Sequence record: DRR723986_1848 | DNA length: 64,000 nucleotides | Direction: 5' to 3' (one strand) | Part shown: positions 22,544 through 44,905 of the stretch, one piece after another | How positions within the stretch are numbered: the first letter of the stretch is position 1 | How the letters are laid out: each line of letters starts with the position of its first letter | The notes under the pieces: model-generated | Database searches by the model: none | What the model was told of the DNA's origin: nothing | The model's input: only the letters and a program-made list of their open reading frames with translations | Made by a program: the position numbers and the translations under genes

Positions 22544-23206
22544 TTATAGCTGCTGCTTCTCAGCAAAATACGAATAAATATCGTCTATCAAAGGGCCTTT
22601 GTATTTTTCGACATAGGTATCATTTCTCAGGCCGCACTCAACTTTTTGGAGTTGAGCGCGTATAGGTGCCCATTCACTTTGGGTCACGCAAGCAAGTTTT
22701 GCGATATAAAAAATTCTGCGCGACAAGAAAAAACGATCGAATGGTGGATCCATTCTCAGTAGTAGATGCAGCAATTTTTCCTTGTCTGTCACTACTTCAA
22801 AAATTGGATGCACAGAATTTGCGAACAGCACATCAAGATATGGTTTCACTTGCTCAATATTGGCTTGCAAAACCTCACCGATATATGGTTTGGTGAAGAC
22901 ATCTGCATTAAACAAAGCACATGCTGTTGGTGATGTTGCAGCGGAGTAAGCAAGTCCTCCGGCTAGGGCGCTGAATCTTTCCAACGCCTTCTCTACATCT
23001 GATTGAACCTCAATACACCCCACCCCTACGCTTACGTCATATGCCTTTGGTGATGCCATATATCGAAAGGCAACATAACAACTCATCTCTGAATTGATCG
23101 CTCTTTCGAAGGCGTAAACCTTTTGCATTGGCATGGGCATTGCAACGGGTACATATCCACGCGCAGTCATGTCAGTGGTCAGCATTCTTGTAAAAGGTGA
23201 ATTCAT
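22544..23206 (-). CDS. Putative immunity protein of the RHS toxin
   Basis: 220-aa ORF 15 bp downstream of the RHS stop codon; no signal peptide; positional inference. Confidence 0.6.
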   Translation of the reverse strand: MNSPFTRMLTTDMTARGYVPVAMPMPMQKVYAFERAINSEMSCYVAFRYMASPKAYDVSVGVGCIEVQSDVEKALERFSALAGGLAYSAATSPTACALFNADVFTKPYIGEVLQANIEQVKPYLDVLFANSVHPIFEVVTDKEKLLHLLLRMDPPFDRFFLSRRIFYIAKLACVTQSEWAPIRAQLQKVECGLRNDTYVEKYKGPLIDDIYSYFAEKQQL

Positions 23207-23221
23207 AGCACAGCTTATAAA

Positions 23222-26200
23222 TTACGGTCTGCCAGTTTGCATAGTTCGCACATCTGCGCCTGAGCTTTCCAAGATTGTTTTCAGTCGGAAGGAACTGAAT
23301 TGGGCCGCTCTGTTGGAGCTGAAGTCAATACCGATATATATGACTCGCCTTACCGTGATTGACTCCAAGCCCAACGGCACCGTTGCCCCATACTCATAAA
23401 CTTTGGCATCAAATTTGACCTGTGCCATATTTAACTTGAGAACGTCACCGATTGTTGACTTCACCTCGACAGCTACGTACCTTCCATCAGGATCAGTCAT
23501 AAGTAAATCATACACCCGAACCTGAGTCCCGTCAGTCGCCGTTACCTGACGGCCTTTGAATTTATAGTTATCCGACTCCAATCTAGCGCGAGCAATCTTT
23601 TCTGCATCGCTGCCCCGCATGTTGGGGCCGCGACCATTTTTTGAATCCCAACCGTCAGAGTGCGAAACCTGATTATACAAATAAGCAAACGCTCCGGTAA
23701 TCGCTCCATTGGAGAACTTTCCACCGGTCAGTTCAGATACTGTTCCGCCCACCGTACCGGCCATCAATGCACCTGCGAGCTTGTCTGAAAATGTTGTGCT
23801 TCCCGCAAATTCAGCAATGTATGGAGAAGTGATTTTCGTGAATCCCCCAGCAAGTGCTCCACTGCCGCAATCTCCACCGTTAAGCGTGGCTGAGGCACAA
23901 CCTAGGGCTGCATGCGAAGCAATTGCTTCAGCACTGGCAAATGTTCCAGGCGCTGTCCCGAATTTCTGCCCAATTTGCCCGGCAAGCCCACCTGTGAATC
24001 CACCAATGAATGCGCTTTTCAGGTTACCTCCACTACCCACAAAGCTGCCAGCAAATCCACCTGCTGCACCTGCACCAAAGGCTCCACCAATAAATTTACC
24101 AGCTGTATACCAATCACCAACACTGATGCCCACAGCAATTCCTACTACTGCTCTGAACAGACTGTTCTTGAACAACTTCTTGAGGAAGAATCCAGAGGGA
24201 TCTGTATAACTGAGCGGGTTGTTGTTCACATACGCATAGCGGTTGTAGTTCTGCAGGTTCGTCGGCTGCGCTATAAACGGATCCGCACTCATGAATCTAC
24301 CTAAGCTCGCATCGTAAATACGCCCGTTCATATGCACCAACCCCAGATGATCTAGATGCTCATGCCCAGTGAATCCGCGATCGGTTTCGCCCAATAAGTG
24401 GCCGCCATTGGCCGTGTAATCCGTCCCGTTGAGGTTTCGTCGCTTGCCCCACGCGTCGTAGCTGTACCTCTCCAGTACCGTACCCGTCGCTCCCGTTATC
24501 AACACAATGCTGCCTAAGTGGTCCTTATGCAGGTATTTAGTGATCACTGTCTCCGTGGTTGTTTCAGACTGACCTAACAAACTTCCAAGTAGGTTGGGCT
24601 TCACCACTGAAATTGAGTCTATATGCAGCACTTTACCCGCAATGTAGTATTTTGCTTGTGAGGAACTGGTGCTAGTGTTGCTGCTTTGCTCCAACTCAAA
24701 GTTATCCACATACCATGTGATGACGTTTAATCCGTTGTATGCCGCAGTTTGTTTGACGCGCTGGTGCTCGGGGCCGTACCTAAAGCTGCTGTTCTGACTG
24801 CCCTGCGTGATGTTATCAACCATGTTAAAGCTCATCCAGCTCACAGTGGCTCCGCCCCCTGTGAGCATATTGCCGTTGGCGTCATATGTGTAGCTCGGGC
24901 TGCTCGCGCCATGCACACTGCCCGTGATTTTGGTGAGTTGGTGTGGCTTGGTTGTGGTGCCGTAGGTGTATGTGCGGGCATCCTTAGTGAGGATGTTGCC
25001 GTACTTGTTGTAGGTTGCCGTTTTGCCGGGAACGCCGGTGGTGCCGGTGGTGCTGGTCAGGCGGTTCAAGCTGTCGTAGCCGAAGTTCTCTGCCCGGGCA
25101 ACTGGGGTACCGTTGTTGCCGGGTGCTCCAAAGTCCATCCAGCTTCTAGCGCTCAGATTGTTCTCGCTGTCGAAGCTGTATCCCTCGGAGAGTCGATCCG
25201 CCGTGGTTGTATTCGTACCCACCGCGTTGGTCTTCAAACGTCCCCAAGCATCGGATTGCGCCACTTCAATCAAACCATTGCCCATGGTAACTCGGGCAAT
25301 CTGATCCATCCCGCTAGCCACAAGACTGTGCATTTCCCACAGTTTTGTGTTGGCATTGTGATTAAATTGGCGAATTAAGCCGACTCCGCTGTATTCGTTG
25401 CGCACGATAAAGCCGGCTGTGGGCGCGGCATTGGTGGTGGGAGCTACATTAGGTTGTACGCGCGCTGGGTACACGTGGCGGGCCACACGCCCGGTAGTGG
25501 ATTCATAAACAGTGCCGCTCCAGAACACGTTGCCATCCATGGCAACCCGTTCACTTACTTCCCGCCCGATACTGTCATAACAATGCACTCTGTTGTAACC
25601 GGTGCTGGTGGTAGCCTGAGTCAGCTTGCCTTTGGCGGTATTCGGTGCTGCAGCACAATGGCTGCTGTGAGTATCATAGCTCCAGGTGCTGATCAGGTCA
25701 GCTTCTCGCCTTTCGGTTTGACGCCCAGCCACATCGTAGGCAATAGTGGTGAGTTGGCCTTTGCCATTTTGCTGGAGCCGAAGCTCACCAATTGCGTTGT
25801 ACCGGTACTGCCACGTGCCCATGTGAGAATCTGTCATGGCGGTCTTTCTGCCACGAAGATCGTAGGTCATCGTTGTGATGATTCCGCTGGCATCGGTCTG
25901 GATCTGATTGCCCAGCGCATCATAGGTGTGGGTGATGGTGTTGTTTTGCGCATCGGTTACGCTGATCAACTGACCCAGCACGTTGTAGGTGCTGCTTGTG
26001 GTTTGCCCTTTGGTGTTCGTGCTGCTGGTGCTTAAACCGTTGTAAGCCACCGTGCGTGCATATCTCCCATTGACCTTGTTTGCAGTGTTGGTAGCACCTG
26101 CATCCTCCGTTTCTTCTCGCACCACCCGGTTGAGGATGTCGTAGGTGCTGTAGGCCCACTGAATGGTCTGTGCAGCAGTATGTCCGATACTGTCCGCAAG

Positions 26201-27013
26201 GTAAGTGTTGCTCTTTTTGGCCACGCGACCCCATGCGTCATAAACAGTGTCTTGCGTGTTCCAGGTCCAGGAGGCGGTGCCAGTAAGCACCTGAGTTTGG
26301 CTGCGAATGGCACGATTTTGGTTGTCATAGTACGTCCTTGAGACTGGGCCGATCTGTGCGTTACCGCTACTGAGGCTGCCAGTGCGAATGTAATAGTACG
26401 GTGTCACACCCTGAATACTGGTGGGGCAGGCACCCGAGGTCGAACCTGCACAGAACGCGTATTCCCAGTAAGTCTTGCTACCATCGGGACGCACCTCACC
26501 AGTCTTTCGTCCAAAGTCATCATATGTCCAGGTGGTGATAAGTCCATTGGGGCCAGTTTGTTTGCTCACCGTACCAAAGCGTAGATCAAACTCTTGGGTT
26601 TCACTGTGCCCCAGTGAGTTCGTGTTGCTTGTTGGGAACTGACCTCCCACCGGATTCACGGCAGTGGCGCTGTAACTGGTGGTCAGGGTACGCGTAGTAA
26701 ACTGGGTGTAGTTGCCACCGACACTGGCTGTGGCCGGGGGCGCTGGGGGTGCGGCGGCCTCATTGCCCACACCCGCAATGGCCGAGCCGTTGCAGTTTCG
26801 AGTTTGGGTGGCCGTGCGGTTGCCATAAGCATCTAGGGTATATTGGGTGGCCACACACAAAGTGGCATTGGTCGGTTCGACCACCTCACGGATCAGAACC
26901 CCATCGGCGTCATACACAAAAGCGCTGGTTCTGGTAACTGTCTCTGCTTGAGCAACTGTTGCCGCAAACAACAAGGGCAGTGCAAGCTTCAGGGTCTGAT
27001 GTAGTGGTCTCAT
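23222..27013 (-). CDS. RHS/YD-repeat toxin (TcC-like) with signal peptide and C-terminal PD-(D/E)xK nuclease
   Basis: Signal ...LFAATVAQA-E; YD repeats; RHS core RGFTGHE...MNGRIYD...GRFMSADP...NPLSYTDPSG; C-terminal RVYDLL...VAVEVKS. Confidence 0.88.
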   Translation of the reverse strand: MRPLHQTLKLALPLLFAATVAQAETVTRTSAFVYDADGVLIREVVEPTNATLCVATQYTLDAYGNRTATQTRNCNGSAIAGVGNEAAAPPAPPATASVGGNYTQFTTRTLTTSYSATAVNPVGGQFPTSNTNSLGHSETQEFDLRFGTVSKQTGPNGLITTWTYDDFGRKTGEVRPDGSKTYWEYAFCAGSTSGACPTSIQGVTPYYYIRTGSLSSGNAQIGPVSRTYYDNQNRAIRSQTQVLTGTASWTWNTQDTVYDAWGRVAKKSNTYLADSIGHTAAQTIQWAYSTYDILNRVVREETEDAGATNTANKVNGRYARTVAYNGLSTSSTNTKGQTTSSTYNVLGQLISVTDAQNNTITHTYDALGNQIQTDASGIITTMTYDLRGRKTAMTDSHMGTWQYRYNAIGELRLQQNGKGQLTTIAYDVAGRQTERREADLISTWSYDTHSSHCAAAPNTAKGKLTQATTSTGYNRVHCYDSIGREVSERVAMDGNVFWSGTVYESTTGRVARHVYPARVQPNVAPTTNAAPTAGFIVRNEYSGVGLIRQFNHNANTKLWEMHSLVASGMDQIARVTMGNGLIEVAQSDAWGRLKTNAVGTNTTTADRLSEGYSFDSENNLSARSWMDFGAPGNNGTPVARAENFGYDSLNRLTSTTGTTGVPGKTATYNKYGNILTKDARTYTYGTTTKPHQLTKITGSVHGASSPSYTYDANGNMLTGGGATVSWMSFNMVDNITQGSQNSSFRYGPEHQRVKQTAAYNGLNVITWYVDNFELEQSSNTSTSSSQAKYYIAGKVLHIDSISVVKPNLLGSLLGQSETTTETVITKYLHKDHLGSIVLITGATGTVLERYSYDAWGKRRNLNGTDYTANGGHLLGETDRGFTGHEHLDHLGLVHMNGRIYDASLGRFMSADPFIAQPTNLQNYNRYAYVNNNPLSYTDPSGFFLKKLFKNSLFRAVVGIAVGISVGDWYTAGKFIGGAFGAGAAGGFAGSFVGSGGNLKSAFIGGFTGGLAGQIGQKFGTAPGTFASAEAIASHAALGCASATLNGGDCGSGALAGGFTKITSPYIAEFAGSTTFSDKLAGALMAGTVGGTVSELTGGKFSNGAITGAFAYLYNQVSHSDGWDSKNGRGPNMRGSDAEKIARARLESDNYKFKGRQVTATDGTQVRVYDLLMTDPDGRYVAVEVKSTIGDVLKLNMAQVKFDAKVYEYGATVPLGLESITVRRVIYIGIDFSSNRAAQFSSFRLKTILESSGADVRTMQTGRP

Positions 27014-27241
27014 GTCCGTCTGAACCTTCTGTTCTGTAGTTTAGTTATTGGTCTTATTCGCTTGGCTCAAGTGCTTAACCTTGTTGATTTGGATAAGCCT
27101 TCTGGATTTATCCTGACCAACATGGAAGTCCTGATGGACCTGGCTCCAATTAATTATTTCTTTAATACTTGTATTTCTATCCTCAATACCTACCAAAGTA
27201 GACGGTTTTTAAGGTGTCGACTTTTCTAAAACCATTTGTAA

Positions 27242-30175
27242 TCAAGGCTTGACGTGGGTAACTGCACTTTTAATTAGTCGGCCCTGTCTGGCTCGCTCGG
27301 CATTACTGTCGTACGTGTTGTTGGTCGTGCGGCTATAACCACTGGCTGTTCCATCAGCGTTTAGTGTTTGCTCTTGCATCTGAGTGACGTTCCCAAACCC
27401 ATCCAGTGTGATAAGAGTACGTTTTCGTGGCAGCTCTGACCCTTGTTGCGAGGTGGATGTCATTTCCCACTGCCGGGTGGTGCTATCCACAGTGTACGGG
27501 ATCACAATCTGCCCGTTGAGTGCTGCCGTACCACACGTTTGAGCAGTGGAATTGGTTGGGGTTCTTACCCGAATGATGCTGTCCGTCTGCTCACGCAATC
27601 CGCCCAATGGCAACTTAACCTGAGTTTGCACAGTCATTCCCAAACAGGGCCACTGTTGCGAGTACGTTGAGCGCAACGTCGGCATCGACACACCGTCTGA
27701 ACCTGTCATCTGGCTCTCCATCCACTCAAACCCCAAAAAGCCTCGACCATACTGTCGGTCAACTTTCCCCCCAAAATATCTAAAGTTTGTGGTGCTGAAT
27801 CCTCCAATACCGTTTGACTCACGAACTTCCTTGGTTACGACATAACCGCCTGGCAAGTTTGCCAATGGCCATATGTAACCGGATTGCGAGCTAAATGATG
27901 AGATTTCTTTAGAAGAAGAAAATATGGGTATGATTTCATGACTACTAACACTGATTTTTTTAATAGTTGAATAATGAGAGCTTTTCTGCAGTTTACAAAC
28001 CAAGCCGGACGTACGCCTTATGCAAAAGTCAGGCTTTCCATCATTATTTAAATCCACAAAACGACCAGTAGAATAGGTAGAAGCTAACTCTAAGTCTGCC
28101 CCGGGCTCAAGACTCACCCCATTTACGAGTACTGGGGTTAAGTTTAAGATCGAGCCTAAATAACAGCGGATCACCAGATTTTCGCGGAAGCAAACATCAG
28201 GAAAGTTATCTTGATTTACATCTCCGAAGTAAAAATAGGACCCTTTGATCGGAGAGGACCATCCGGCAGCATCGGTAAAAGCTGGATATCTATTGGCTGC
28301 TATTAAAAAATCAGAGAATCCAAGGCTTCCGGGAAGATTGGATGGCGACACGCTAAGGCCGCAACGATAACCTGAAGATGTTTTTACACAAAAGTCATCG
28401 CTACCATCATTGGAAATGTCAGCATAAACGATTGAATTAACATATGAAGTAACACCGGAGGGCAAGCTAGGGCCATTGACCACCCTGATGAAATTAATAC
28501 CATCACTCAGGTGACATTTTGAGACCCCGTTAATTCCACATACATCGACAAAACCATCACCATTGATGTCTGCGAACCTGATTGTGCTGTAGGCGGATTC
28601 GTTTGCCCATCCTAGAGAATCAGAGAACGCTGGGCCGCGTTTAGGTAACCCAAAGCTTGAGCCGTTCCCCAACCAGCAAACTATACCATCTGCATCTCTG
28701 CCACATAAATCGGAGAAAGAGTCGCCATTGAAGTCCAGATAAATCAAAGAAGAATATCTAGATTTTTGATTCCATCCGGCTGAATCGCTTAGATTTGGCC
28801 CTCTGAAACTAGTTGGGAAAGAATTTCCTGTACCAATCCAACAGACGATCCCTGATGTGTCTTTGGCACATATATCTGCTTTTCCGTCACGGTTAAGATC
28901 TGGATACTGAATAGTTGAGTAGCGTTGAGTGACACCCCATCCTGCTGAATCAGACAAAGGCGGTCCATTGAAGGGTGATAGAAACTGCCCGCCATCAAAT
29001 ACTCTACACTTAATGCCTGTGGATTCTCTGTAGCAAAGGTCGCTATTACCATCTCCATTCAGGTCAGGGTAAGAGATGGTCTCATAGTATTCTGACTTAT
29101 TAAAAGAGTTAGCATCAGACAGTCCATTTACTGAAATGGCTTCATTAAGGTCAGAATAAATTATATTTTGGGTGTTTAAGTTCCACTCGAATGCTACACT
29201 CGGCAAACAATTGGATGCCACACACTCTTGAATAGATGTCAAATATTTCTCGTTGTTCGCCCCACCCACTTGATAAGTAAGTTGGTAGGATAAAACAACC
29301 TCACCGCTCAAGCTCCATTGTGGAGAATAATCGACTGTACCCGTGTAAGTTATAGATGGGTTTTTACGAATCTGGATGCCTCGGATGGTACTGCCGGTGA
29401 TGTAATAATAACCAGCCCCTGCGGTGAACTGCCCACCCTCTAATACTAATTCGGTTTTACCAAACGGATCTTGGGCAGTGCCATACCCAAATTCAACACA
29501 ATAATCAAATCCTTTGTTTAACCTTATGTTACCGGTGTAGCAAACAGCTCTAATCATATTTGGATTAAAGCTGGTAGTGTAAAATGCCTTCCAATAATTG
29601 CCCTTAGAGTCAATTACAGATTCCAATACAAAGCTGTGTACAAATAAAGGAATCGTGGTATTAAAAACTCCGATTCTTTTAACAAATTTTTTAATTTCAC
29701 CTGCCTTTGTATGAACCTCAAAATACTTAGATTTATCCAGCGAAGATGTGTCAACGCCAATGATCTTGGATCCATCATATAATTGTGTTTCATATATCGC
29801 ACCATCTTGATGGTATGCGCCTGACTTTAATACGAGTCTTACTCCATCAAGACACCAAACGTCTGAATTGGTGTAAGACAAACTCCCCTTAATACCATCT
29901 ACTTCTAAGGATTTTGCGCATCTGTGAATTGTGCTCAATCCACCAACAACAAATCCTTTGCCCAATATGTCATGTGAATAACCGCTGTTGTACTCAATTG
30001 TTATGGGAGGCTTAACACCTGCTATACCTGGAGGTAATCTGAGTGGATATTTATATTCAAATGCACCTGACGCATTAACATCCCAAATTCCGCGTCTATC
30101 CATTTGTGCATTCGAATTTAATTGATGAAAAGCAACAAAGAGCGTGAATGTGATTTTAATAATTTTGTTTAGCAT
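27242..30175 (-). CDS. SpvB/TcB-like protein with FG-GAP repeats and signal peptide
   Basis: GAFEYKYPLRLPPGIAGVKP...LGKGFVVGGLSTIHRC (SpvB-like start); seven DxNxDGxxD repeats; GRGFLGF TcdB-mid-like motif. Confidence 0.8.
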   Translation of the reverse strand: MLNKIIKITFTLFVAFHQLNSNAQMDRRGIWDVNASGAFEYKYPLRLPPGIAGVKPPITIEYNSGYSHDILGKGFVVGGLSTIHRCAKSLEVDGIKGSLSYTNSDVWCLDGVRLVLKSGAYHQDGAIYETQLYDGSKIIGVDTSSLDKSKYFEVHTKAGEIKKFVKRIGVFNTTIPLFVHSFVLESVIDSKGNYWKAFYTTSFNPNMIRAVCYTGNIRLNKGFDYCVEFGYGTAQDPFGKTELVLEGGQFTAGAGYYYITGSTIRGIQIRKNPSITYTGTVDYSPQWSLSGEVVLSYQLTYQVGGANNEKYLTSIQECVASNCLPSVAFEWNLNTQNIIYSDLNEAISVNGLSDANSFNKSEYYETISYPDLNGDGNSDLCYRESTGIKCRVFDGGQFLSPFNGPPLSDSAGWGVTQRYSTIQYPDLNRDGKADICAKDTSGIVCWIGTGNSFPTSFRGPNLSDSAGWNQKSRYSSLIYLDFNGDSFSDLCGRDADGIVCWLGNGSSFGLPKRGPAFSDSLGWANESAYSTIRFADINGDGFVDVCGINGVSKCHLSDGINFIRVVNGPSLPSGVTSYVNSIVYADISNDGSDDFCVKTSSGYRCGLSVSPSNLPGSLGFSDFLIAANRYPAFTDAAGWSSPIKGSYFYFGDVNQDNFPDVCFRENLVIRCYLGSILNLTPVLVNGVSLEPGADLELASTYSTGRFVDLNNDGKPDFCIRRTSGLVCKLQKSSHYSTIKKISVSSHEIIPIFSSSKEISSFSSQSGYIWPLANLPGGYVVTKEVRESNGIGGFSTTNFRYFGGKVDRQYGRGFLGFEWMESQMTGSDGVSMPTLRSTYSQQWPCLGMTVQTQVKLPLGGLREQTDSIIRVRTPTNSTAQTCGTAALNGQIVIPYTVDSTTRQWEMTSTSQQGSELPRKRTLITLDGFGNVTQMQEQTLNADGTASGYSRTTNNTYDSNAERARQGRLIKSAVTHVKP
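27990..29135 (-). repeat. Seven intragenic FG-GAP-like repeats, each with a Cys pair
   Basis: Consensus GP.LSD..GW....YS.I.Y.D.N.DG..D.C......G..C; coordinates approximate. Confidence 0.75.
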
Positions 30176-30714
30176 TGTACAGACCTTCTATTTGTTTATG
30201 TTTTTACCTGCACTGAAAAAACTTTGCTGCTGTAAATGTGAATTTAAAATACGATTTATTATTGATCGGTTAATTTTTCTTCTCTTAGTCTAATTGTATA
30301 AAGAAATAAAAATTCAACTTTGATAAGTTTGTCCCTTAAAATGCTCGCAATCTATAACTTTGCGTCTTAGTGTTTCGCTGATTCCAGTAGAGAGCCGTTT
30401 GATGTCAAGTTAGGTTCATAATCATCGAGTTACGCAGAAGATTAAAATTATCAAATTTTTTTAAAACTTGTTACCTTCAATGTCTGCATCTGCTCAAGGT
30501 ACGGGACGAACTTCTACGTACTATTGGGACTGTTACTTGCACACACAATTAGATAGATTAAATTTTCATCTTTATATCCCTAAAATGAGGGGGGAGGAAG
30601 CGTTAAGAAACTCTGAAGGATCTGGTTTGAACACAGAATTTTTAATGTTTGGTGGCATTTCTAGGCCCAATCGCAATACACTGTTATCAAGACTAATTCG
30701 AAAAATTTGTCAAA

Positions 30715-31155
30715 ATGTGTATCTCGTCGAAACGGTATCTGGGCTTTACTCTGCTTGAACTGCTAGTGGTACTCGTCATTCTTGGTCTCTTGGCAGCTTA
30801 TGTTGGACCACGCTATTTCGGTCAATTGGGCAAAGCTGAATCCAAATCAGCTCAAACGCAAATCAATGCATTTGGCAAAGCACTGGATGCCTATCGCCTA
30901 GACACAGGTAGCTACCCGGGTACTGCGCAGGGCTTGATGGCTTTGTATCAAAAACCAACGCAAATCAATAATTGGTTCGGGCCTTATTTGGACAAGCCGC
31001 CACCTGCCGACCCTTGGGGTAGAGCCTATGAATATCGATCTCCAGGTCAGCATGGAGAGTACGACTTATTTACTCTTGGTAAAGATGCAAGCCCCGGTGG
31101 TGACGCAGAAAACGCCGACATCACCAGTTGGGTTCCTGTTGGAAATTCACGTTAA
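30715..31155 (+). CDS. gspG: Type II secretion major pseudopilin GspG
   Basis: G-FTLLELLVV prepilin site; ALDAYRLDTG.YP, GPYL and DPWG..YEYRSPG. Confidence 0.92.
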   Translation: MCISSKRYLGFTLLELLVVLVILGLLAAYVGPRYFGQLGKAESKSAQTQINAFGKALDAYRLDTGSYPGTAQGLMALYQKPTQINNWFGPYLDKPPPADPWGRAYEYRSPGQHGEYDLFTLGKDASPGGDAENADITSWVPVGNSR

Positions 31156-31161
31156 ACCGGT

Positions 31162-32349
31162 ATGCCGCAATTCACCCTCACAGCCATTGATCAATCTGGA
31201 ACAATTCAAACCAAGCGAATCAATGCTGGCACAAAGCAGCAGGCCGAATCGTGGTGTGTGGAATCAGGGATGCAGGTTATTTCGGTTAAGTTACCGCTGA
31301 GCCAACGTTTCACTAGTGGCACACGCTCAAGCTTTAAGTTAATTCCTTTTGCCGAAGAATTGCTCGCACTTCAAAAGGCGGGGCTTTCAATTACAGAAAG
31401 CTTAAGTGGCCTGCACAGCAAGGCCAATGAATCCCAGAAGCCAGTTTTATCTGGTCTAATCCAAAGCATTCAACAAGGACAATCTTTTTCTGAGGCTTTG
31501 GCCAACTATCCAAACGAGTTCCCCACCCTCCTTCGCGCCTTGGTGCAGGCCGCGGAAAAAACCTCGAACTTGCCTCAAGCCATCGAAAAATACCTTGAAT
31601 ATGCTCAACAGGCTGACCTCATCAAACGCAAAATTTCCAATGCAGCGCTTTACCCCAGCCTTCTTTTGTTGGTGGGTGGGGGGGTGCTGATGTTTTTGCT
31701 GATGTACGTAATTCCACGCTTTGCCGGAGTATACGAGGGGCTGCAAGGCGACCTACCCTGGTTATCTGAGGTGCTTCTATGGTGGGGTCGCGCCATGCGG
31801 GATCATGCGGTATGGGTATTCACAGTCCTTGCAGCATTGGCTTACGCCATTTATTCAACAATCAAGAATACTCACTATCAACACAAGGTCTTGCAACTTG
31901 TGCTGCGCAATTCCACCGCGGCAAAACTTTGGCAAGGCTACACCTTGAGCAGACTATACCGAGCACTGGGTTTGTTGCTTAGTGGAGGGATACCCGTGCA
32001 AATATCACTGGCGCAGGTAGAACAATTGCTGGGGCAAGATGAAGCCCATCAACTAAGAAAGGTAAGCCAACGTATTGAGCAAGGTGAACCTCTTTCAACT
32101 GCCTTGGCGGAATCAAAATTAACTACTGAAATTTCATTTCAAATGTTGACCGTGGGTGAACGTACAGGTTCTGTGGGCGAAATGCTCACCAAAACTGCCC
32201 AGTTTTTAGAAGCTGATACCAGCAAGGCTGTGGAGGCATTTTCCAGAATATTCGAGCCCGTGTTGATGGCACTGATCGGCTTGATCATCGGTGTGGTGGT
32301 GGTACTGATGTACATGCCCATCTTCGAATTGGCCAATAGCTTGCAATGA
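31162..32349 (+). CDS. gspF: Type II secretion inner membrane protein GspF
   Basis: Two T2SSF domains; AALYP, GERTG and EPVLM...MYMPIF. Confidence 0.9.
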   Translation: MPQFTLTAIDQSGTIQTKRINAGTKQQAESWCVESGMQVISVKLPLSQRFTSGTRSSFKLIPFAEELLALQKAGLSITESLSGLHSKANESQKPVLSGLIQSIQQGQSFSEALANYPNEFPTLLRALVQAAEKTSNLPQAIEKYLEYAQQADLIKRKISNAALYPSLLLLVGGGVLMFLLMYVIPRFAGVYEGLQGDLPWLSEVLLWWGRAMRDHAVWVFTVLAALAYAIYSTIKNTHYQHKVLQLVLRNSTAAKLWQGYTLSRLYRALGLLLSGGIPVQISLAQVEQLLGQDEAHQLRKVSQRIEQGEPLSTALAESKLTTEISFQMLTVGERTGSVGEMLTKTAQFLEADTSKAVEAFSRIFEPVLMALIGLIIGVVVVLMYMPIFELANSLQ

Positions 32350-33932
32350 TGAGCAACGAACCAACTTTCACAACCAATCCCTTTGCTTGGCCAACGCTGA
32401 CTAGCGATGCCCTAGGCACGCTCGAGCCAGATTTTGCAGCCCTACCCATCTCCGCAGTTCGAAAATGGTCATGTGCCCTGGCGTTTTGCGAAGAAAATCG
32501 AGAAACTGTTTGGCTGGTGTGCGATCCGCACAAGCAACACCTGTTTGATTGGGCCATTGAACACCTACCCGAAGAAGCCTTGCAAAATCCCAGGTTAGTG
32601 CGTGAAGAGGATTTCAACACATGGCTAAATACGCTTGAAGGGGCGATGCGAGCGCTCACCCAAACCGACGATTTAACTTCAGATGCAAGTGATCGCAGGG
32701 AACAAGGATTACACCTTTCCATGGCCAGTATTTCGCAAACAGACAATGCCGTGGTCAGACTGGTCGACTCCACCTTGTTCGATGCCTTGCAGGTGGGTGC
32801 ATCCGATATTCACCTTGAAAGTGATCCTTCCGGGCTCACGGTAAAGTACCGGCTGGATGGTGCTTTAAATCAGGCTACAAAAATTGATACCTTGGCCATG
32901 GCAGACCAAATGATTTCCAGAATCAAGGTACTTGCTGAATTGGATATTGGCGAGCGACGCATTCCGCAAGATGGTCGCTTTAAGGTGACCTGCCTAGGTA
33001 AATCGATCGACTTACGCGTATCGATTATGCCCAGCGTGTATGGCGAGGATGCCGTTCTGCGTTTGCTGGATCGAAGTACATTGACTTCTCAATCACAGCA
33101 ACTGACGCTGGAAACCTTGGGGTTTGACAAGTCCACTCTTACGCAAATTCGCCGATTGGCTAAGGCACCCTACGGTATGTTCCTGGTCACAGGTCCCACA
33201 GGATCGGGAAAGACCACCACGCTGTACGCTGCACTTACAGAGTCAAAAACTGAGGAAGAAAAAGTAATCACCATTGAAGATCCTGTGGAGTACAAGCTGG
33301 ACGGCGTTTTGCAAATACCAGTGAATGAGAAAAAGGGATTGACCTTTGCCAAGGGTTTGCGATCAATTTTGCGCCATGACCCAGACAAAATCATGGTGGG
33401 GGAAATTCGCGATGCAGACACCGCGCAGGTTGCAGTTCAGTCGGCGCTTACCGGGCATTTGGTGTTTACCTCGGTTCACGCCAACAATGCATTCGACGTA
33501 CTGGGACGATTTTTACATATGGGCCTGGACCCTTACACTTTTGTATCTGCATTAAATGGGGTGGTGGCACAACGCTTGGTGCGAATGCTGTGTGAGCATT
33601 GCAAGCAACCCATGCTCAGCGATGAAGCGGATTTCAATTTGTTTCAAAGTTTGGGACACGAACATACAGACCTGCAAACGTATCCACTATTTAAACCTGT
33701 GGGCTGTTCGCACTGCCGGGGTACTGGCTACAAAGGCCGAAAAGCGATTGCCGAAGTGCTTTTAATTGATGATGTGCTGCGCGACAAAATTGCCAATCGG
33801 GAACCGATGCAAACGATTAAAGCCTATGCACTAAGCAAAGGTACGGTACCTTTGCTCGAAAAAGGAATGCAGCTAGTTAGAGCAGGTAAAACCACTTTGG
33901 ATGAGGTGAGCCGTGTGGCCTTTTCCAACTAA
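32346..33932 (+). CDS. gspE: Type II secretion ATPase GspE
   Basis: ASDIHLE, PQDGRF, Walker A GPTGSGKTT, LRHDPDKIMVGEIRD and two CxxC motifs. Confidence 0.92.
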   Translation: MMSNEPTFTTNPFAWPTLTSDALGTLEPDFAALPISAVRKWSCALAFCEENRETVWLVCDPHKQHLFDWAIEHLPEEALQNPRLVREEDFNTWLNTLEGAMRALTQTDDLTSDASDRREQGLHLSMASISQTDNAVVRLVDSTLFDALQVGASDIHLESDPSGLTVKYRLDGALNQATKIDTLAMADQMISRIKVLAELDIGERRIPQDGRFKVTCLGKSIDLRVSIMPSVYGEDAVLRLLDRSTLTSQSQQLTLETLGFDKSTLTQIRRLAKAPYGMFLVTGPTGSGKTTTLYAALTESKTEEEKVITIEDPVEYKLDGVLQIPVNEKKGLTFAKGLRSILRHDPDKIMVGEIRDADTAQVAVQSALTGHLVFTSVHANNAFDVLGRFLHMGLDPYTFVSALNGVVAQRLVRMLCEHCKQPMLSDEADFNLFQSLGHEHTDLQTYPLFKPVGCSHCRGTGYKGRKAIAEVLLIDDVLRDKIANREPMQTIKAYALSKGTVPLLEKGMQLVRAGKTTLDEVSRVAFSN

Positions 33933-34590
33933 ACAGTTGTCTGCGTATTTAAGCAGCCAGAGCTTGGTAGCGTGGGAAACGTCACCAGGGAATGGGCATG
34001 ACCAGTTGAAAAAGTTGTCTGCGATCCAACTTGAAGAGTTAACAGAATCCATCCATGTTCAGGGTAAGTTACCTCCCGCCATGAAGCGACATAAAACAAC
34101 CCTTCGCTTGGCACCCAGCCTGGGGCGCTGCTACACGCTACAAGCTGCAAACACTAAGCTCGGTTCATTTGAACTTAAAGGGCTTGCCGAGCACTGGGGT
34201 AAAACTTTCATGGGACCAAAGTACTCGGCATGGCAATGGCAGGCCATGCAAATTCAACCTGGCGACCCTATTTTGTTATGCGCGTGCCAGGTGAATACCC
34301 AATACCTGAACGTGTTCCAAACAGTTAAACCTGAACTGCTCAACCTGATTGACTCGTTGAAAGCCAACGAATCAGCTTGGGTGATTTGTCACGATGAAAT
34401 TTTGGTGCAAAGCGCACTGGTTAAGGATGGAGTTATTAGATCTATTCGCACCTGGCCAAGTCATTACGCCAACCATGTGAAAGAGATAGTCGAAAAACAC
34501 ATGTTGCTCGCTGATGATACTCGCGGGAAAAACATTCACCACGTGGTTGAATCACATCTTGGGGAGGTGCAAATCCATGGCGCGGCATAG
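33913..34590 (+). CDS. T2SS operon protein, possibly a GspL/PilM-like cytoplasmic component
   Basis: Position between gspE and the PilN-like gene; overlapping starts and stops. Confidence 0.45.
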   Translation: MWPFPTKQLSAYLSSQSLVAWETSPGNGHDQLKKLSAIQLEELTESIHVQGKLPPAMKRHKTTLRLAPSLGRCYTLQAANTKLGSFELKGLAEHWGKTFMGPKYSAWQWQAMQIQPGDPILLCACQVNTQYLNVFQTVKPELLNLIDSLKANESAWVICHDEILVQSALVKDGVIRSIRTWPSHYANHVKEIVEKHMLLADDTRGKNIHHVVESHLGEVQIHGAA

Positions 34591-35080
34591 CATCAATTTT
34601 TCAAGTAACCAGCAAAATGTGCAACGCGACAAGATAGTACTTGGATTGCTGCTACTGGCTTTAATCGCCCTGCTCTTTGGGGTGTATGCAACTCAGGTGC
34701 AACGCGAGCAAGCACGCTCAAGGCAACAGTTACTTCAGGATAAGCTTGTTGAGGCAAAGAACAATAAGCCCGCCACACTAGAGAAGAAACTTCAAAACTA
34801 TTGGACGGAATCAAAGACCAATTGGGCTGGGCTTTTTTCCACACTCGAGGAGGTAAAGAATCCAGACATTACTTTGCTGTCTATTGATCCTCAACTCTCT
34901 GAAAAACGTGTACTCATTTCTGGTCTTGCTAAGAATCAGGAAACACTTAATTTGTACCTAACCAAGTTGGAATCTTCAACAGTACTGAAACAAGTGGAAT
35001 TACAACGTTACCGCCGGACCACCAACAGCCCCAATGGTTTAGAGTTTTTTGTTGTGGCTCAATGGATTGCTCATGACTAA
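34577..35080 (+). CDS. PilN-domain protein
   Basis: TM plus coiled coil plus W..LF..LE....DITLLSI...V.ISG.AK. Confidence 0.7.
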   Translation: MARHSINFSSNQQNVQRDKIVLGLLLLALIALLFGVYATQVQREQARSRQQLLQDKLVEAKNNKPATLEKKLQNYWTESKTNWAGLFSTLEEVKNPDITLLSIDPQLSEKRVLISGLAKNQETLNLYLTKLESSTVLKQVELQRYRRTTNSPNGLEFFVVAQWIAHD

Positions 35081-35624
35081 GCCTTCTCAATCCCTTGCCC
35101 AACTATTGCACGCGCTACTGGAAAAGCGTGACATGCGGATCGCAGTGATCGCTGTGCTGCTTACCGTGAATGTGATCTTGGCGATTTGGATAGGAACAAA
35201 TATCCACGAAACCGCTAAAACTCAACGGGATACCTTGGTTTTAATACAAACCAATCAGTCAGCGCTTGACGCCGTGGACGCAGAACAACACGGGCAACGC
35301 GAACTAGAGGCAAGGATCAATAATAGACTGGCCAGTCGTGATGATCTAAACGGTTTGATTTTGTCGTTGGAGAGCACAGCCCCGGCACACGGAGTGACTC
35401 TCTCTGATGCCAATCAATCTTTTGTGGAAGCAAGTCGTGACAAGTTATCTCATTCTCTGATTCAGTACAGTGTGCAGGGAAGCTATGCTGGTGTGCTGCA
35501 GTTTGTTGCCGAGTCGCTGAACAAACACGAAGCATTAGTGCTCAATAGCTTAACCTTTCGTCGCTCAGATCCTTTAGTCAGCAACTTGCAAATCAACCTT
35601 GAATGGGCGCTGTATTACCGATGA
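35073..35624 (+). CDS. GspM/PilO-like protein
   Basis: TM helix; VQGSY..V.QFV...L....ALVLNSLTFRR. Confidence 0.65.
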   Translation: MTKPSQSLAQLLHALLEKRDMRIAVIAVLLTVNVILAIWIGTNIHETAKTQRDTLVLIQTNQSALDAVDAEQHGQRELEARINNRLASRDDLNGLILSLESTAPAHGVTLSDANQSFVEASRDKLSHSLIQYSVQGSYAGVLQFVAESLNKHEALVLNSLTFRRSDPLVSNLQINLEWALYYR

Positions 35625-36166
35625 AACCCCCAATGAAGAATTTGCTGTTTCAACCAAAGGTTCGGCTCGCATTGCTGCTCAGCCTTTTGCTTGGATTGCT
35701 GATTTTGAATTTGACAGCAATACCCGTTCAAAACCCGGACCAAGAGCACGATGTTGCGAAAATGCCTGAATCTGCCAACAAACAGAAGAATGCGCTCGGT
35801 CCTTACGGTGCTCAAGTGGGACGAGTCAAGTGGGAGCCATCTGGCGAAGACATTTTTGTAGAAGCTTCTGTGACTCCAGTAACCGAGGAACCTGTTCGAC
35901 CTCCTGAACCGCCTGCGCCAACAGTTCCTCCACCAGCGCCTGAACCAGTGGCACCACCATTGCCCTACGTTGTCATGGGAAAGTTCAAAAGCGGCGAGAA
36001 ATCTACGCTATATCTTCGAGCGGGAAACAACACAATCCCAGTATCAGAAGGCGATTTACTCGGAAGCGGTGATTACAAAATTGAAGGCATTTCAGAATCC
36101 GAGGTGTCGATTCGATACCTGCCCATGAACCATTTACACGAACTGAGTTTGAGTGGCCTAGAGTGA
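35621..36166 (+). CDS. PilP/GspC-like assembly protein
   Basis: TM helix, Pro-rich linker, APPLPY.VMGK...GD.L...YKIE.I. Confidence 0.55.
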   Translation: MKPPMKNLLFQPKVRLALLLSLLLGLLILNLTAIPVQNPDQEHDVAKMPESANKQKNALGPYGAQVGRVKWEPSGEDIFVEASVTPVTEEPVRPPEPPAPTVPPPAPEPVAPPLPYVVMGKFKSGEKSTLYLRAGNNTIPVSEGDLLGSGDYKIEGISESEVSIRYLPMNHLHELSLSGLE

Positions 36167-38109
36167 ACAAAAACAAGCTAATTAAATTGACCTTCCTTGC
36201 TTTGCTGCTATCCGGCTGTGCCGCATCACAAGCGTATCGCGAGGGCAACAAACTTTTAGAGGCAGGAGATTCATTCACCGGTTTGGCCAAACTTGAAGAG
36301 GCCATGATCAAGGACCCGATGAATACGGAATACAGAGCAGTGTATTTCAGACAGAAGGAAAGCTTGATTAACCGCACCCTGGCGCAAGCTGAAAGCAAGG
36401 CGAATCTTGGAGCCTTTGATGATGCGAGAGGCGACTTTAATCGAGTTCTAGGTTTGGATGCCAACAACATTCGTGCAATCCGCGGCTTAGAACAACTTGA
36501 AGCGGCTGCCAAAGCCAATCAACTATCCAATGAAGCAACACAACTCCTTCGGCAAGGTAAGCTTGCTGAGGGCAACAAACTGCTTGATGAAGCACTGGCA
36601 CTGCAACCCACCAATGCAACATTGTTGAGTTTGAAAGACGAGTTTGAACAGGAGATGGGAGTAAAGGCCAAACAGGCCGCAACAGAGCTTGGGCCACAGT
36701 TCAGAAAGGAAGTGTCATTTAGTTTCAGGGATGCACCGGTTGCATCTGTATTTGACGCCTTGGTACACGCTACGGGCATCAATTTCATTTTCGACAAAGA
36801 CGTGCGAACAGACACACGTACCTCGATGACCATCAAACAAAAACCCATGATTGATGTACTACGAGTGATCTTGTCGATGAATCAACTCAACCATCGAGTT
36901 CTAGACGAAAGCACGATATTGATTTACCCAAACACGGCCGCCAAAGCTGACGAATACCAAGAACTAATCATCCGGAATTTCTACTTAAGCCATTCGAATG
37001 TTCAGCAAACTGCAAACATGCTGAAATCCATGGTGAAGGCCAAAGAAATTTTTGTAGATGAAAGGTTAAATCTCATTGTGATGAAGGATACCCGCGAGAC
37101 TATAAACCTGGCGGAAAAGCTCATTGCCACACAAGATTTGCCAGAGCCCGAAGTAATGCTGGAATTGGAAGTTCTGGAAATCGCTACCAACAAGATGCGA
37201 GATCTTGGTATCCGTTGGCCTGATCAAATTTCTGGCTCAGTCACTGGGTCTGGTGGCGTTAGAGGCGAACTAAGCTATGACGAGTTTAGAAATCCATCCA
37301 AAGGCTTGGTCACCATACAAGTTAACAATCCCCTGATCACCGCAACATTGCGCCAATTGGATGGTGATGCAAGCCTGTTGGCCAACCCTCGTATTCGAAT
37401 CAAAAACAGAGCGAAAGCAAATATTTTGATTGGTGAACGCGTGCCGGTGGTAACCACCACCACAACTGCCAATGTGGGTACGAGTGAATCGGTCAATTAC
37501 TTGGATGTCGGCTTGAAGTTGAATTTGGAACCCATCATTTCACTTGATCAACAGGTCTCAATGAATGTGAGCCTTGAAGTTTCCAATATTCTAGAAACAA
37601 TTACGCGCACATCGGGTTTACAGACCTACCGACTAGGTACACGAAACGCTTCCACTGTGCTGAGAGTAAAAGATGGAGAGACGCAGATACTAGCGGGACT
37701 GATTCAACAAGATGAGCGAAACTCTGCACAGCGAGTTCCCTTTCTGGGCGACTTTCCCGTGCTGGGTCGTCTGTTCTCAAGTACATCAGAAAATGGCGTA
37801 AAAACAGAGATTGTGTTGTTGATTACCCCCAGAATTATTCGGAATATTCCGCTACCCGTCAGTGGCAAGAGCGAAATTTTCTCGGGCACACAAAACGCTT
37901 TGGGTGCAACACCAATTCAATTAAGAGCATTGTCCAACGCAAGCACAAACAACAACGAAAACCCACCCCCTACACCGGCCAACGATTCGGTGATTAATGA
38001 AAGCCAAATGAGCATTCAAGCCCCGTCAGTTGTTGAGCAGCCTCTACCTGGAAATCTCAACAATGAGCAAGGCATATTCATTCCGCCCATGCCCGGAGTT
38101 AGTCAGTGA
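36163..38109 (+). CDS. gspD: Secretin GspD with N-terminal lipoprotein signal and TPR-like region
   Basis: LLLSGC lipobox; VMLELEVLE, LLANPRIR, VPFLGDFPVLGRLFS and LLITPRII secretin motifs. Confidence 0.9.
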   Translation: MNKNKLIKLTFLALLLSGCAASQAYREGNKLLEAGDSFTGLAKLEEAMIKDPMNTEYRAVYFRQKESLINRTLAQAESKANLGAFDDARGDFNRVLGLDANNIRAIRGLEQLEAAAKANQLSNEATQLLRQGKLAEGNKLLDEALALQPTNATLLSLKDEFEQEMGVKAKQAATELGPQFRKEVSFSFRDAPVASVFDALVHATGINFIFDKDVRTDTRTSMTIKQKPMIDVLRVILSMNQLNHRVLDESTILIYPNTAAKADEYQELIIRNFYLSHSNVQQTANMLKSMVKAKEIFVDERLNLIVMKDTRETINLAEKLIATQDLPEPEVMLELEVLEIATNKMRDLGIRWPDQISGSVTGSGGVRGELSYDEFRNPSKGLVTIQVNNPLITATLRQLDGDASLLANPRIRIKNRAKANILIGERVPVVTTTTTANVGTSESVNYLDVGLKLNLEPIISLDQQVSMNVSLEVSNILETITRTSGLQTYRLGTRNASTVLRVKDGETQILAGLIQQDERNSAQRVPFLGDFPVLGRLFSSTSENGVKTEIVLLITPRIIRNIPLPVSGKSEIFSGTQNALGATPIQLRALSNASTNNNENPPPTPANDSVINESQMSIQAPSVVEQPLPGNLNNEQGIFIPPMPGVSQ

Positions 38110-38582
38110 ATACAAGAGTACACGACGGGTTCACGCTCATTGAACTCTTGATCGTGGTGGTAATTATGGGGGTACTTGCGTCCATTGCTTTGCCCCTAAC
38201 AGAACTGGCTTCCAAGCGCGCAAAGGAGGAGGAACTGCGAACAGCTCTTCGACAAATCCGCACAGCACTGGATGCCTATAAGAAAGCTGCTGATGAAAAC
38301 AGAATTGAACGAGCATCCGATGCATCAGGCTACCCACCCAACCTTGCGGTGCTGGTTGATGGCGTTCCCGCCATTAACATTCCAGACAGACGCCCTATTT
38401 ACTTTTTGCGTCGAATGCCACGTGACCCCTTCGCCGATAAAAATACGCCCGCAATAGACACGTGGGGTTTAAGAAGTTATGAGAGCCCACCCGATGCCCC
38501 CAAGCCTGGTGATGATGTTTTTGATGTGCACTCCAAATCCACTGAAATTGGTTTTAACGGCATTCCATACAGGCAGTGGTGA
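38106..38582 (+). CDS. Type II secretion pseudopilin (GspG-like)
   Basis: G-FTLIELL; LRQIRTALDAYK...YFLRRMPRDPF. Confidence 0.85.
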   Translation: MNTRVHDGFTLIELLIVVVIMGVLASIALPLTELASKRAKEEELRTALRQIRTALDAYKKAADENRIERASDASGYPPNLAVLVDGVPAINIPDRRPIYFLRRMPRDPFADKNTPAIDTWGLRSYESPPDAPKPGDDVFDVHSKSTEIGFNGIPYRQW

Positions 38583-38587
38583 ATAGA

Positions 38588-38971
38588 ATGTACAAAAACA
38601 AACACGGTTTTACGTTGATTGAACTCTTGGTAGTACTGGCTATTTTGGCAACGCTTCTCACAATTGCTGTTCCTCGATATTTCAGCAGTGTCGGCAGTGC
38701 TAAGGAGGCTTCGCTGAAACAAAACTTACTAGTACTTCGCGATGCTATCGACAAGTACCATGCAGACCATGGCGAATATCCAAACAGCCTTGAGGCGCTT
38801 GCGAAAGATAGATATATTCGGTTCGTTCCTGAAGACCCCATTACCCAATCTAAAGAATCTTGGATTTTGATAAAACCCCAAGGCGAAGATGAGGAATCAA
38901 AACTTATCTATGATGTGCGAAGTGGGGCACTTGGTAACTCCAGGGATGGAGAGCCGTATGCAAGCTGGTAG
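38588..38971 (+). CDS. Type II secretion pseudopilin (GspG-like)
   Basis: G-FTLIELL; LRDAIDKYHAD.G.YP.SL...YIR.VP.DPIT. Confidence 0.85.
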   Translation: MYKNKHGFTLIELLVVLAILATLLTIAVPRYFSSVGSAKEASLKQNLLVLRDAIDKYHADHGEYPNSLEALAKDRYIRFVPEDPITQSKESWILIKPQGEDEESKLIYDVRSGALGNSRDGEPYASW

Positions 38972-39398
38972 AGAAATCTGTGTAAGCCAAGATGGATTTA
39001 CCTATCTAATTCTGCTTTTTTCAATCGCAATTCTGGGTATTGGGCTTGCCACCACGGGCGTGATCTGGAGTACAGAATCGCGACTGGCCAAAGAACGAGA
39101 ACTTGAATTTATCGGTCAAGAATTCGTTCGTGCTATCGAGAGTTATTACAACGCGACCCCAGGAGAAGTGAAGACTTACCCGCCGACTCTAGAGGACTTG
39201 GTGAGCGATACACGATTTTTGTTTACGAAGAGACATCTGCGGAAAGTTTACGCAAACCCATTCACTGGTGTTGTCGATTGGGAGGTTGTTAACCATCCCC
39301 AAGGGGGTATTAGTGGAATTAAGTCAGGGATAAATAACTCCTTTTCACAAAAAGAATTGATATTCATCACCACACCGCTAAGACCAGCAACAATTTAA
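38958..39398 (+). CDS. Type II secretion pseudopilin lacking Glu5 (GspK-like position)
   Basis: G-FTYLILL (no E5); RHLRKVY.NPFTG. Confidence 0.75.
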   Translation: MQAGREICVSQDGFTYLILLFSIAILGIGLATTGVIWSTESRLAKERELEFIGQEFVRAIESYYNATPGEVKTYPPTLEDLVSDTRFLFTKRHLRKVYANPFTGVVDWEVVNHPQGGISGIKSGINNSFSQKELIFITTPLRPATI

Positions 39399-39522
39399 TC
39401 CGATTAGTTGTAAAGACCCCTGCTCAAAGGGCCTATGTGTCTTGATCCAAACAAACTAGACAAGAAATATAAGTATGATAAGGTACTTAAAGTTCCTAAA
39501 TTATGGAAACATCGGTGTACTT

Positions 39523-44893: not shown

Positions 44894-44905
44894 GGTGGTT
44901 TTCAA

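Follow-up and report, generated by a model that had tools for sequence, protein, structure and literature searches.

Gene content of the locus

[quoted passage not shown] The pairing reported here, found again in many other bacteria, points to a little-studied route of this kind, and the locus and its relatives offer a compact, testable model for it, with two toxin genes, one immunity candidate and eleven machine genes in a non-pathogenic inhabitant of water. The open reading frames (ORFs) of the window were scanned against Pfam and NCBIfam, and the defence-type cargo also against the PADLOC models.

A first-pass annotation, made from the sequence alone, had placed on the minus strand a 1263-amino-acid (aa) RHS gene with an immunity candidate and a 977-aa SpvB/FG-GAP gene, diverging across an AT-rich spacer of about 540 bp from an 11-gene T2SS operon. 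The ORFs are all found where it had put them, the spacer agrees in length and composition, and the operon is intact, with eleven ORFs on the plus strand. For the 977-aa gene, the coordinates, the length and the FG-GAP repeats stand, but the SpvB assignment is weak, its score being under the family cut-off.

Table 1. Position of the features in the window (aa, amino acids; GC, guanine plus cytosine)
Feature	Position	Strand	Remarks
yifB, C-terminal half	10860-11510	-	
Target-site duplication, left copy	11571..11575		TCCGC, 5 bp, read directly from the sequence
Tn7-like transposon in yifB/comM	11576..50926		39,351 bp; carries the toxin genes, immunity candidate and secretion operon
Transposition genes	11700..17807	+	tnsA 11700-12365, tnsB 12367-14301, tnsC/tniB 14303-15193, tniQ 15190-16284, 508-aa ORF 16281-17807
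Patatin-like phospholipase	17868-19550	-	adjoined by a 227-aa ORF
631-aa ORF	19832-21727		
110-aa ORF	22083..22415	-	
Immunity candidate	22544..23206	-	220 aa, 24.9 kDa; lacks a signal peptide; follows the RHS toxin gene after 15 bp
RHS toxin	23222..27013	-	1263 aa, 135 kDa; predicted signal peptide, residues 1-23 (26945-27013)
C-terminal toxin domain	23225..23677	-	residues 1113-1263 of the RHS toxin; predicted PD-(D/E)xK nuclease
TcB-like protein	27242..30175	-	977 aa, 107 kDa; predicted signal peptide, residues 1-23 (30107-30175)
Divergent spacer	30176..30714		539 bp, 33% GC
Secretion operon	30715-39398	+	eleven ORFs
gspG-like major pseudopilin	30715-31155	+	Pfam/NCBIfam
gspF-like platform	31162-32349	+	Pfam/NCBIfam
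gspE-like ATPase	32346-33932	+	Pfam/NCBIfam
Four assembly-platform genes	33913..36166	+	225, 188, 191 and 187 aa
Secretin	36163..38109	+	648 aa
Three minor pseudopilin-like genes	38106..39398	+	158, 131 and 169 aa
SspB, SspC, SspD	39651-44893	+	
793-aa double-HATPase protein, then 667-aa ORF	44906-49277	+	
Xre/MbcA/ParS-type antitoxin domain protein and DUF433 protein	49327-50826	- (antitoxin domain protein)	175 aa and 228 aa
Target-site duplication, right copy	50927-50931		TCCGC
yifB, N-terminal half	50891-51871	-	

The TcB-like protein has a 98% identical counterpart in a Limnobacter metagenome-assembled genome and would consist of an SpvB-like N-terminal region, a seven-blade FG-GAP propeller at about residues 340-735 and a TcdB_midN-like C-terminal part. 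The FG-GAP_3 family scored 66.9 bits (Pfam cut-off 26.9), TcdB_toxin_midN 24.0 (cut-off 24.8) and SpvB a weak 15.9 (cut-off 22), and relatives of the same length carry the SpvB, FG-GAP and TcdB families in precomputed Pfam assignments. An AlphaFold model built from a seven-sequence alignment had a mean predicted local distance difference test (pLDDT) score of 43.7, too poor for use. The RHS protein matched RHS_repeat with 76.1 bits (cut-off 22) and the Rhs-associated core (Rhs_assc_core TIGR03696) with 66.8 bits (cut-off 32.5). Its shell extends to about residue 935 and is followed by YTDPSGF at 936-942, which we take to be the core-end DPxG motif, then by a glycine-rich pre-toxin segment at 943-1112 with weak similarity to DUF637, which ends in LYN at 1112-1114, and finally by the variable tip.

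As the first-pass annotation had noticed, both toxin halves begin with Sec-type signal-peptide-like sequences, as judged with a heuristic and by eye, and both contain paired cysteines. In the TcB-like protein there are 22 cysteines, with one C-x8/9-C pair in every one of the seven FG-GAP blades, and in the RHS protein there are eight, arranged as four close pairs. A hydrophobic extension precedes the conserved SpvB start, again by eye, in about 19 of 24 TcB-like homologues of approximately 970 aa. Judging from these sequence features both proteins look Sec-exported and are predicted to reach the periplasm, and the pairing of their cysteines suits folding outside the cytoplasm.

The tip of the RHS protein is a predicted nuclease of the PD-(D/E)xK fold. 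A search with its last 150 residues gave 646 relatives at E<=0.001; among the 29 of these that were scanned with Pfam, 11 matched RHS families (two of them being fused SpvB/FG-GAP/RHS proteins), seven matched DUF637 and the rest had no family. Across 34 aligned sequences E99 and K101 never vary and D85 hardly does, giving a conserved D...ExK, and the structure model derived from this alignment is confident, with a pLDDT of 83.4. The best matches of the model in a Foldseek search were SfsA (E 3e-5, template modelling (TM) score 0.49), EndoMS/NucS, AF1548 and Card1, two CdiA-CT nucleases being among the weaker ones, and the TM-scores were modest throughout (0.39-0.49). A sequence search against solved structures returned no match for the tip, and neither the tip nor its scanned relatives matched the Tox-REase families of Pfam.

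Two metagenome contigs of marine type, L107 and L108, hold a toxin module 92-95% identical to that of the window, and their RHS gene is 95% identical up to residue 1120 and unrelated beyond it. The 220-aa gene is also absent from these otherwise near-identical loci. The RHS core is kept while the tip differs and the small downstream gene is missing, which is the swapping of tip and immunity gene expected of a polymorphic toxin. We consider the 220-aa protein a candidate immunity protein because of the position of its gene; a complex prediction of the tip with this protein gave a score of 0.00 and is uninformative either way. Promoter- and terminator-like sites near the toxin genes were no commoner than in shuffled sequence, and four metatranscriptome runs contained 17-22% of the words sampled from positions 25000-34000 of the window.

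The 110-aa ORF next to the immunity candidate could serve as a spare for immunity or have an accessory role. Relatives of it (62-69% identity over 56 and 64 aa) occur beside RHS copies in the Limnobacter genome G024, where additional RHS copies, some 10 kb away from the secretion operon of that genome, are interspersed with a 28-aa gspG fragment (82% identical; locus L014, 8032-8115) and two relatives of the 110-aa ORF (4858-8515). The fragment and the ORF relatives look like remnants of rearrangements in an RHS array.

An unorthodox type II secretion operon

The operon diverging from the toxin genes has the core set of a T2SS, namely a GspG major pseudopilin, a GspE ATPase, a GspF platform protein and a secretin. 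GspG (163 bits) is over its NCBIfam equivalog cut-off of 88.85, and T2SSE, T2SSF and Secretin exceed their Pfam cut-offs with 410, 153 and 141.6 bits, respectively. GspD (161 bits vs a cut-off of 351), GspE (484 vs 630) and GspF (238 vs 424) remain below the NCBIfam equivalog level, and no match to the GspC, H, I, J and K families of Pfam and NCBIfam was found in the operon, for which reasons we call it an 'unorthodox' T2SS. In the secretin a lipoprotein-type N-terminus (LLSGC) precedes the TPR, STN/N0, Secretin_N and Secretin domains, and its score with the PilQ model, 173 bits, is also under the equivalog cut-off. A Limnobacter humi protein named GspD (P0128) shares 79% identity with this secretin.

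Four genes between gspE and the secretin gene would encode the assembly platform. They specify, in order, a cytoplasmic protein at the GspL/PilM position, a PilN-like protein, a protein at the PilO/GspM position and a protein at the GspC/PilP position, the last three having one membrane span each. When the same positions were compared in 12 related loci, the first gave no family match (0/12), the second matched PilN in nine, the third matched PilO or T2SSM_b in eight, and the fourth matched T2SSC, weakly, in one. Among the minor pseudopilin-like proteins, that of 169 aa has a prepilin-like GFT start without the glutamate at position 5. An orthodox GspD is present in all five Limnobacter genomes searched, so that the RHS-linked operon is an extra system in these bacteria. 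In the RHS-linked operon of a Roseateles locus (L103 in genome G045, positions 3133-5472) the secretin has a cohesin-like domain at its C-terminus (Pfam E 1e-6) that is missing from the secretin of the window.

The module is cargo of a Tn7-like transposon

The first-pass annotation had supposed a mobile system, and this is borne out: the toxin-secretion module is cargo of a Tn7-like transposon that splits yifB. Pfam identified TnsA, a Mu-type TnsB, TniB/TnsC and TniQ among its transposition genes, its ends are matching inverted repeats starting with TGT... and ending with ...ACA, three TAATGCGACTA repeats lie close to the left end, and a 5-bp target-site duplication flanks the element, whose GC content is 46% vs 54% in the flanks. 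In L107 and L108 the N-terminal half of yifB (88% identical; 14669-15385 and 21615-22331, respectively) is found about 5.7 kb past the RHS gene, and thus a related element seemingly sits in the same target gene with its cargo arranged differently.

The module is also conserved outside the transposon. Of 25 further genomes searched in the genus, two (G025 and G024) hold a TcB-like gene, and in both the TcB-like/RHS pair is divergent and lies beside the same eleven genes, with no Tns genes in the 40-60 kb read around the modules. Identity to the window ranges from 31-45% for the TcB-like protein, 37-53% for the platform proteins and 58-63% for the RHS protein to 76-79% for the secretin.

RHS genes follow one clade of the secretin tree

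A scan of genome contigs with the single TcB-like protein as query returned no relatives, and loci of the same operon subtype were fetched instead by a secretin-alignment search, which yielded 80. This type of secretin is very common in betaproteobacteria (more than 7000 relatives), the gene order is kept in nearly all of the fetched loci, and eight of the 80 have RHS genes in the flanking DNA that was read. A secretin tree of 82 rows was made from 77 of these loci (the match spanned <=480 query residues in the three omitted), the window, G024, G025, the Ralstonia GMI1000 megaplasmid and a plasmid of Eleftheria terrae. A locus was called RHS-free if at least 2.5 kb upstream of gspG could be read without an RHS match, so that RHS genes farther away are possible.

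The clade to which the window's secretin belongs has 15 rows and a Shimodaira-Hasegawa-like approximate likelihood ratio (SH-aLRT) support of 100. Eleven of its rows are RHS-linked, four are on contigs too short to be classified and none is RHS-free, all 34 RHS-free rows falling outside it. In none of 500 shuffles of the labels was the RHS linkage as tightly clustered as observed. The Ralstonia and Roseateles loci are RHS-linked yet outside this clade, and the linkage therefore needs at least three state changes on the tree. The first-pass annotation had proposed a survey of the co-occurrence of this operon subtype with RHS genes, and for the window's own clade the outcome is a link in every readable locus (11/11), which leaves the proposal unrefuted there.

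In two loci of the clade (L099 of Aquabacterium, and L100) and in the Roseateles locus outside it (L103) the RHS genes stand inside the operon on the same strand, and in genomes with several paralogous secretins the RHS genes adjoin the copy most like that of the window. The RHS genes of linked loci are often split, each half with its own signal-peptide-like start, and by the same heuristic most RHS-linked ORFs elsewhere begin in this way. Their toxin and immunity ends include a WHH nuclease with SUKH-1 and a Tdi1-like protein. On the Ralstonia GMI1000 megaplasmid a 1858-aa RHS ORF diverges from gspG of the same operon type, and on the Eleftheria terrae plasmid a gene annotated as 'RHS repeat-associated core' diverges from the operon. 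The pairing of RHS genes with this secretion operon is not a chance neighbourhood.

Metagenomes were scanned with the seven closest TcB-like sequences, an alignment of 24 being too diverse to serve as a query. Seventeen loci were found, and in seven of them T2SS-type genes adjoin the toxin genes. Two of the loci are the near-copies L107 and L108 of the window module, and two others (L117 and L118) look like one lineage. In the soil contigs L110, L122 and L117/L118 distant TcB-like/RHS genes are found beside a different, classical T2SS set, which in L110 comprises a GspD with an N0 domain, GspJ, GspK and a GspE with an MshEN domain and in L122 includes T2SSM_b. The classical machinery of L110 and L122 indicates that the association with RHS genes recurs with an unrelated type of T2SS.

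Outside the RHS-linked clade, an SLT lytic transglycosylase lies beside the operon in eight of 41 loci (nine ORFs; L020-L098). Other flank genes seen there code for OmpR-type regulators, polysaccharide export, a subtilase with Big_7, a polysaccharide lyase and PhoX.

Proposed mechanism and alternative explanations

The reading we favour, and hold to be probable with clear room for doubt, is that of a transposon-borne antibacterial weapon in which a Sec-exported pair of shell proteins folds in the periplasm and leaves through the adjacent non-canonical T2SS, with a nuclease as its tip and the 220-aa protein as protection. The TcB-like protein, providing the propeller and part of the shell, and the RHS protein, providing the remaining shell and the toxin, would each cross the inner membrane by Sec, and would fold and form disulfides in the periplasm, where the two would jointly enclose the C-terminal toxin. 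Passage of the particle or of its halves through the outer membrane would be driven by the neighbouring machine, with its GspE ATPase, its GspF/L/M-type platform, its GspG pseudopilus and its TPR-bearing lipoprotein secretin. We infer that outside the cell the particle would diffuse and act like a large bacteriocin, the propeller most likely binding a receptor on the target cell. The glycine-rich pre-toxin segment could then aid the entry of the PD-(D/E)xK nuclease tip, and the 220-aa protein would shield the producer. The division of the shell into two halves, each bearing a signal peptide, may enable particles of this size to exit through a secretin.

In a wider form of this proposal, for which we see the balance as even, a betaproteobacterial clade of non-canonical T2SS has specialised in Sec-dependent, periplasm-folded RHS shell toxins, and constitutes a distinct class of weapon that spreads on Tn7-like transposons and plasmids. 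If this were true, the 'unorthodox' T2SS clusters of Ralstonia and relatives would gain a function, the known range of size and type of T2SS cargo would widen, and a secretion machine and its toxin would travel together on one transposon.

Several observations weigh against the weapon proposal. The chief physical doubt is size, since the TcB-like and RHS proteins amount to about 242 kDa together, which to our knowledge exceeds the well-known T2SS substrates. The signal peptides were called with a home-made heuristic (a short charged segment, then a hydrophobic core and a cleavage motif of small residues) and inspection by eye, and rows of the secretin tree that come from one genus are not independent. 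The first-pass annotation had expected the operon subtype to be associated with RHS genes, and what holds for the window's clade does not hold for the subtype as a whole, which is not RHS-specific, no RHS gene having been seen in the DNA read for 34 of the 47 readable loci. Next to these RHS-free operons lie genes for lytic transglycosylases, regulators, polysaccharide export, subtilases, a polysaccharide lyase and PhoX, and this suggests that other clades of the same machine have other cargo. Conversely, the 20-40 kb read at the TcB-like/RHS pairs of genomes G035 and G040 contain no operon of this kind, and ten of the 17 metagenome loci are without T2SS-type genes, several of these contigs being only 2-4 kb long. 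The sub-equivalog scores of the secretin, GspE and GspF, together with a PilMNOP-like platform, also make a pilus-type function possible.

This last point leads to the main rival explanation, which we judge unlikely, namely that the machine builds a type IV pilus-like fibre and that the RHS and TcB-like proteins are attached to its tip or base, for contact-dependent delivery, adhesion or control of extension, instead of leaving the cell as unattached particles. The platform genes are similar to PilN and PilO, the secretin is slightly closer to PilQ than to GspD in score, no TcA-like partner for the propeller was found among the window ORFs scanned, and in Bdellovibrio RHS-family proteins lie beside pilus genes and are proposed, in the accessible text of that study, to act in pilus control (PMC3818213). 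However, the first gene of the operon passes the GspG equivalog cut-off, the operon has neither a PilT-type retraction ATPase nor a long major pilin, the toxin genes possess complete polymorphic-toxin ends accompanied by immunity genes, and the distant relatives pair with a classical T2SS set including GspJ and GspK. A reading in which the RHS pair is no weapon but acts within the envelope of the producer, for instance as a periplasmic or outer-membrane factor for the assembly or regulation of the machine, would fit the predicted periplasmic location of both proteins and the same Bdellovibrio proposal (PMC3818213), but we find it highly improbable given that the tip has a predicted nuclease fold common on polymorphic toxins and is exchanged directly after LYN in loci whose RHS core is 95% identical, with the small downstream gene changing as well.

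It could also be that toxin genes and operon are mere neighbours in an island of competition and defence genes, the RHS pair leaving the cell by lysis, in vesicles or through the housekeeping T2SS and the operon exporting other proteins. The transposon does gather unrelated cargo (SspBCD and a patatin-type phospholipase), most loci of the operon subtype adjoin other genes for secreted enzymes, every Limnobacter genome searched has an orthodox GspD, and the available text on classical toxin complex (Tc) toxins describes them as cytoplasmic products that lysis sets free (PMC10847048). We nevertheless think this quite unlikely, as the pairing is seen in all readable members of the clade across several genera and differing genomic settings, as the RHS genes at times stand inside the operon, and as the secretin tree shows the pairing at least three times over, with one further case in an unrelated type of T2SS.

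Two established export routes were rejected. No match to the PAAR, VgrG, Hcp or TcA families was found among the window ORFs scanned, in agreement with the first-pass annotation, and the gene map of the island leaves no space for a large unscanned gene. Without PAAR, VgrG and Hcp, and with signal-peptide-like starts on both proteins, the pair does not qualify as T6SS cargo, and the lack of TcA and the same starts speak against a classical Tc A-B-C assembly. VipB, of the T6SS sheath family, was present in four of the five Limnobacter genomes searched and gave no match in G024, a genome of 100% completeness with two TcB-like/RHS pairs. VRP1 (TcA) was found in none of the five, a weak result because the control genomes likewise gave none.

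Other cargo of the transposon

To the right of the secretion operon the transposon carries SspB, SspC and SspD of the DNA phosphorothioation defence (PADLOC 356, 1496 and 391 bits, respectively), and no SspA-like gene was seen adjoining them. On their 3′ side follow a protein with a double HATPase domain and weak similarity to restriction enzymes and a 667-aa ORF, and the right end of the element holds the antitoxin domain and DUF433 proteins of Table 1. To the left of the toxin genes, the patatin-like phospholipase matched the 'Effector: Phospholipase' models of PADLOC with 227 bits and may, together with the 227-aa and 631-aa ORFs, form another defence or attack module. Neither Pfam nor NCBIfam gave a family for the 220-aa, 110-aa, 227-aa, 631-aa, 508-aa and 667-aa ORFs of the window.

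Comparison with known systems

With the TcB-TcC cocoon of the Tc toxins of Photorhabdus and Yersinia the window locus shares a two-gene system with an FG-GAP propeller, with regions that resemble SpvB and TcdB_midN at scores below the cut-offs, and with an RHS shell that includes the Rhs-associated core and is followed by a variable toxin at the C-terminus. It differs in that no TcA was found, in its signal-peptide-like starts and paired cysteines, in a split that comes earlier, at 977 aa (about 1470 aa in TcB), and in its tip, an antibacterial-type predicted nuclease with a candidate immunity gene. The T6SS Rhs effectors likewise have an RHS shell, a core-end DPxG motif, a polymorphic C-terminal toxin and an adjacent immunity gene (a candidate here), whereas the window locus has no PAAR, VgrG, Hcp or chaperone, and a signal peptide seems to replace the PAAR or pre-PAAR start. 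The tips of Burkholderia-type CdiA proteins are marked by (Q/E)LYN, and the DUF637-like glycine-rich pre-toxin segment with LYN immediately before the variable tip resembles CdiA-CT; the carrier, however, is an RHS shell and not of the filamentous haemagglutinin type, and there is no CdiB.

As regards export, a partial precedent is Bcn-A, an RHS-family bacteriocin of Xanthomonas perforans, which according to the accessible text of the report is active in cell-free supernatant and inactive when it comes from a mutant in xpsD, the gene of a T2SS secretin. Bcn-A is a single 1398-aa protein whose immunity gene lies downstream, and the model of its authors comprises a plug, a beta-propeller and a YD barrel (PMC7259588). 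Both systems thus have an RHS-family toxin with an immunity gene (a candidate in the window) adjacent downstream, but Bcn-A is one protein served by the housekeeping Xps system, while the window has two genes with their own eleven-gene operon of another subtype, on a transposon. A recent preprint, in the part of its text at hand, links two Rhs families, one from Xanthomonas (180 sequences) and one from Ralstonia (56), to gspG by the criterion of a gspG neighbour within 5 kb alone, and predicts T2SS export of these toxins, stating that it is functionally unconfirmed (bioRxiv 10.1101/2025.05.08.652813). Polymorphic toxins had already been sorted into 'T2SS' and 'TcdB/TcaC' trafficking classes in the portion of an earlier survey available to us (PMC3482391).

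Two 'unorthodox' T2SS clusters of Ralstonia have been listed, with no function given in the accessible text, one of them with four hypothetical genes between gspE and gspD (PMC5080846). The operon on the Ralstonia GMI1000 megaplasmid has the gene order of the window, a secretin 43% identical and an RHS ORF diverging from gspG; its secretin is, however, outside the window's clade and its one long RHS ORF has no TcB-like partner. The accessible text of the papers on gspG-linked Rhs toxins and on unorthodox T2SS describes no Tn7 context (bioRxiv 10.1101/2025.05.08.652813, PMC5080846).

The novelty assumed in the first-pass annotation must therefore be narrowed, since the T2SS-dependent Bcn-A and gspG-linked Rhs toxins are in print (PMC7259588, bioRxiv 10.1101/2025.05.08.652813, each as far as its accessible text goes), and the system is not a new category. 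A full-text literature search, within the texts it covered, returned no account of a clade of secretion machines devoted to RHS toxins, none of a TcB-like/RHS pair that bears signal peptides and has an operon to itself, and none of a Tn7-like element carrying such a module. The proposed clade-specific class of weapon, with split RHS halves or TcB-like/RHS pairs as its cargo, would stand alongside the T6SS Rhs effectors, contact-dependent inhibition (CDI) and the Tc toxins.

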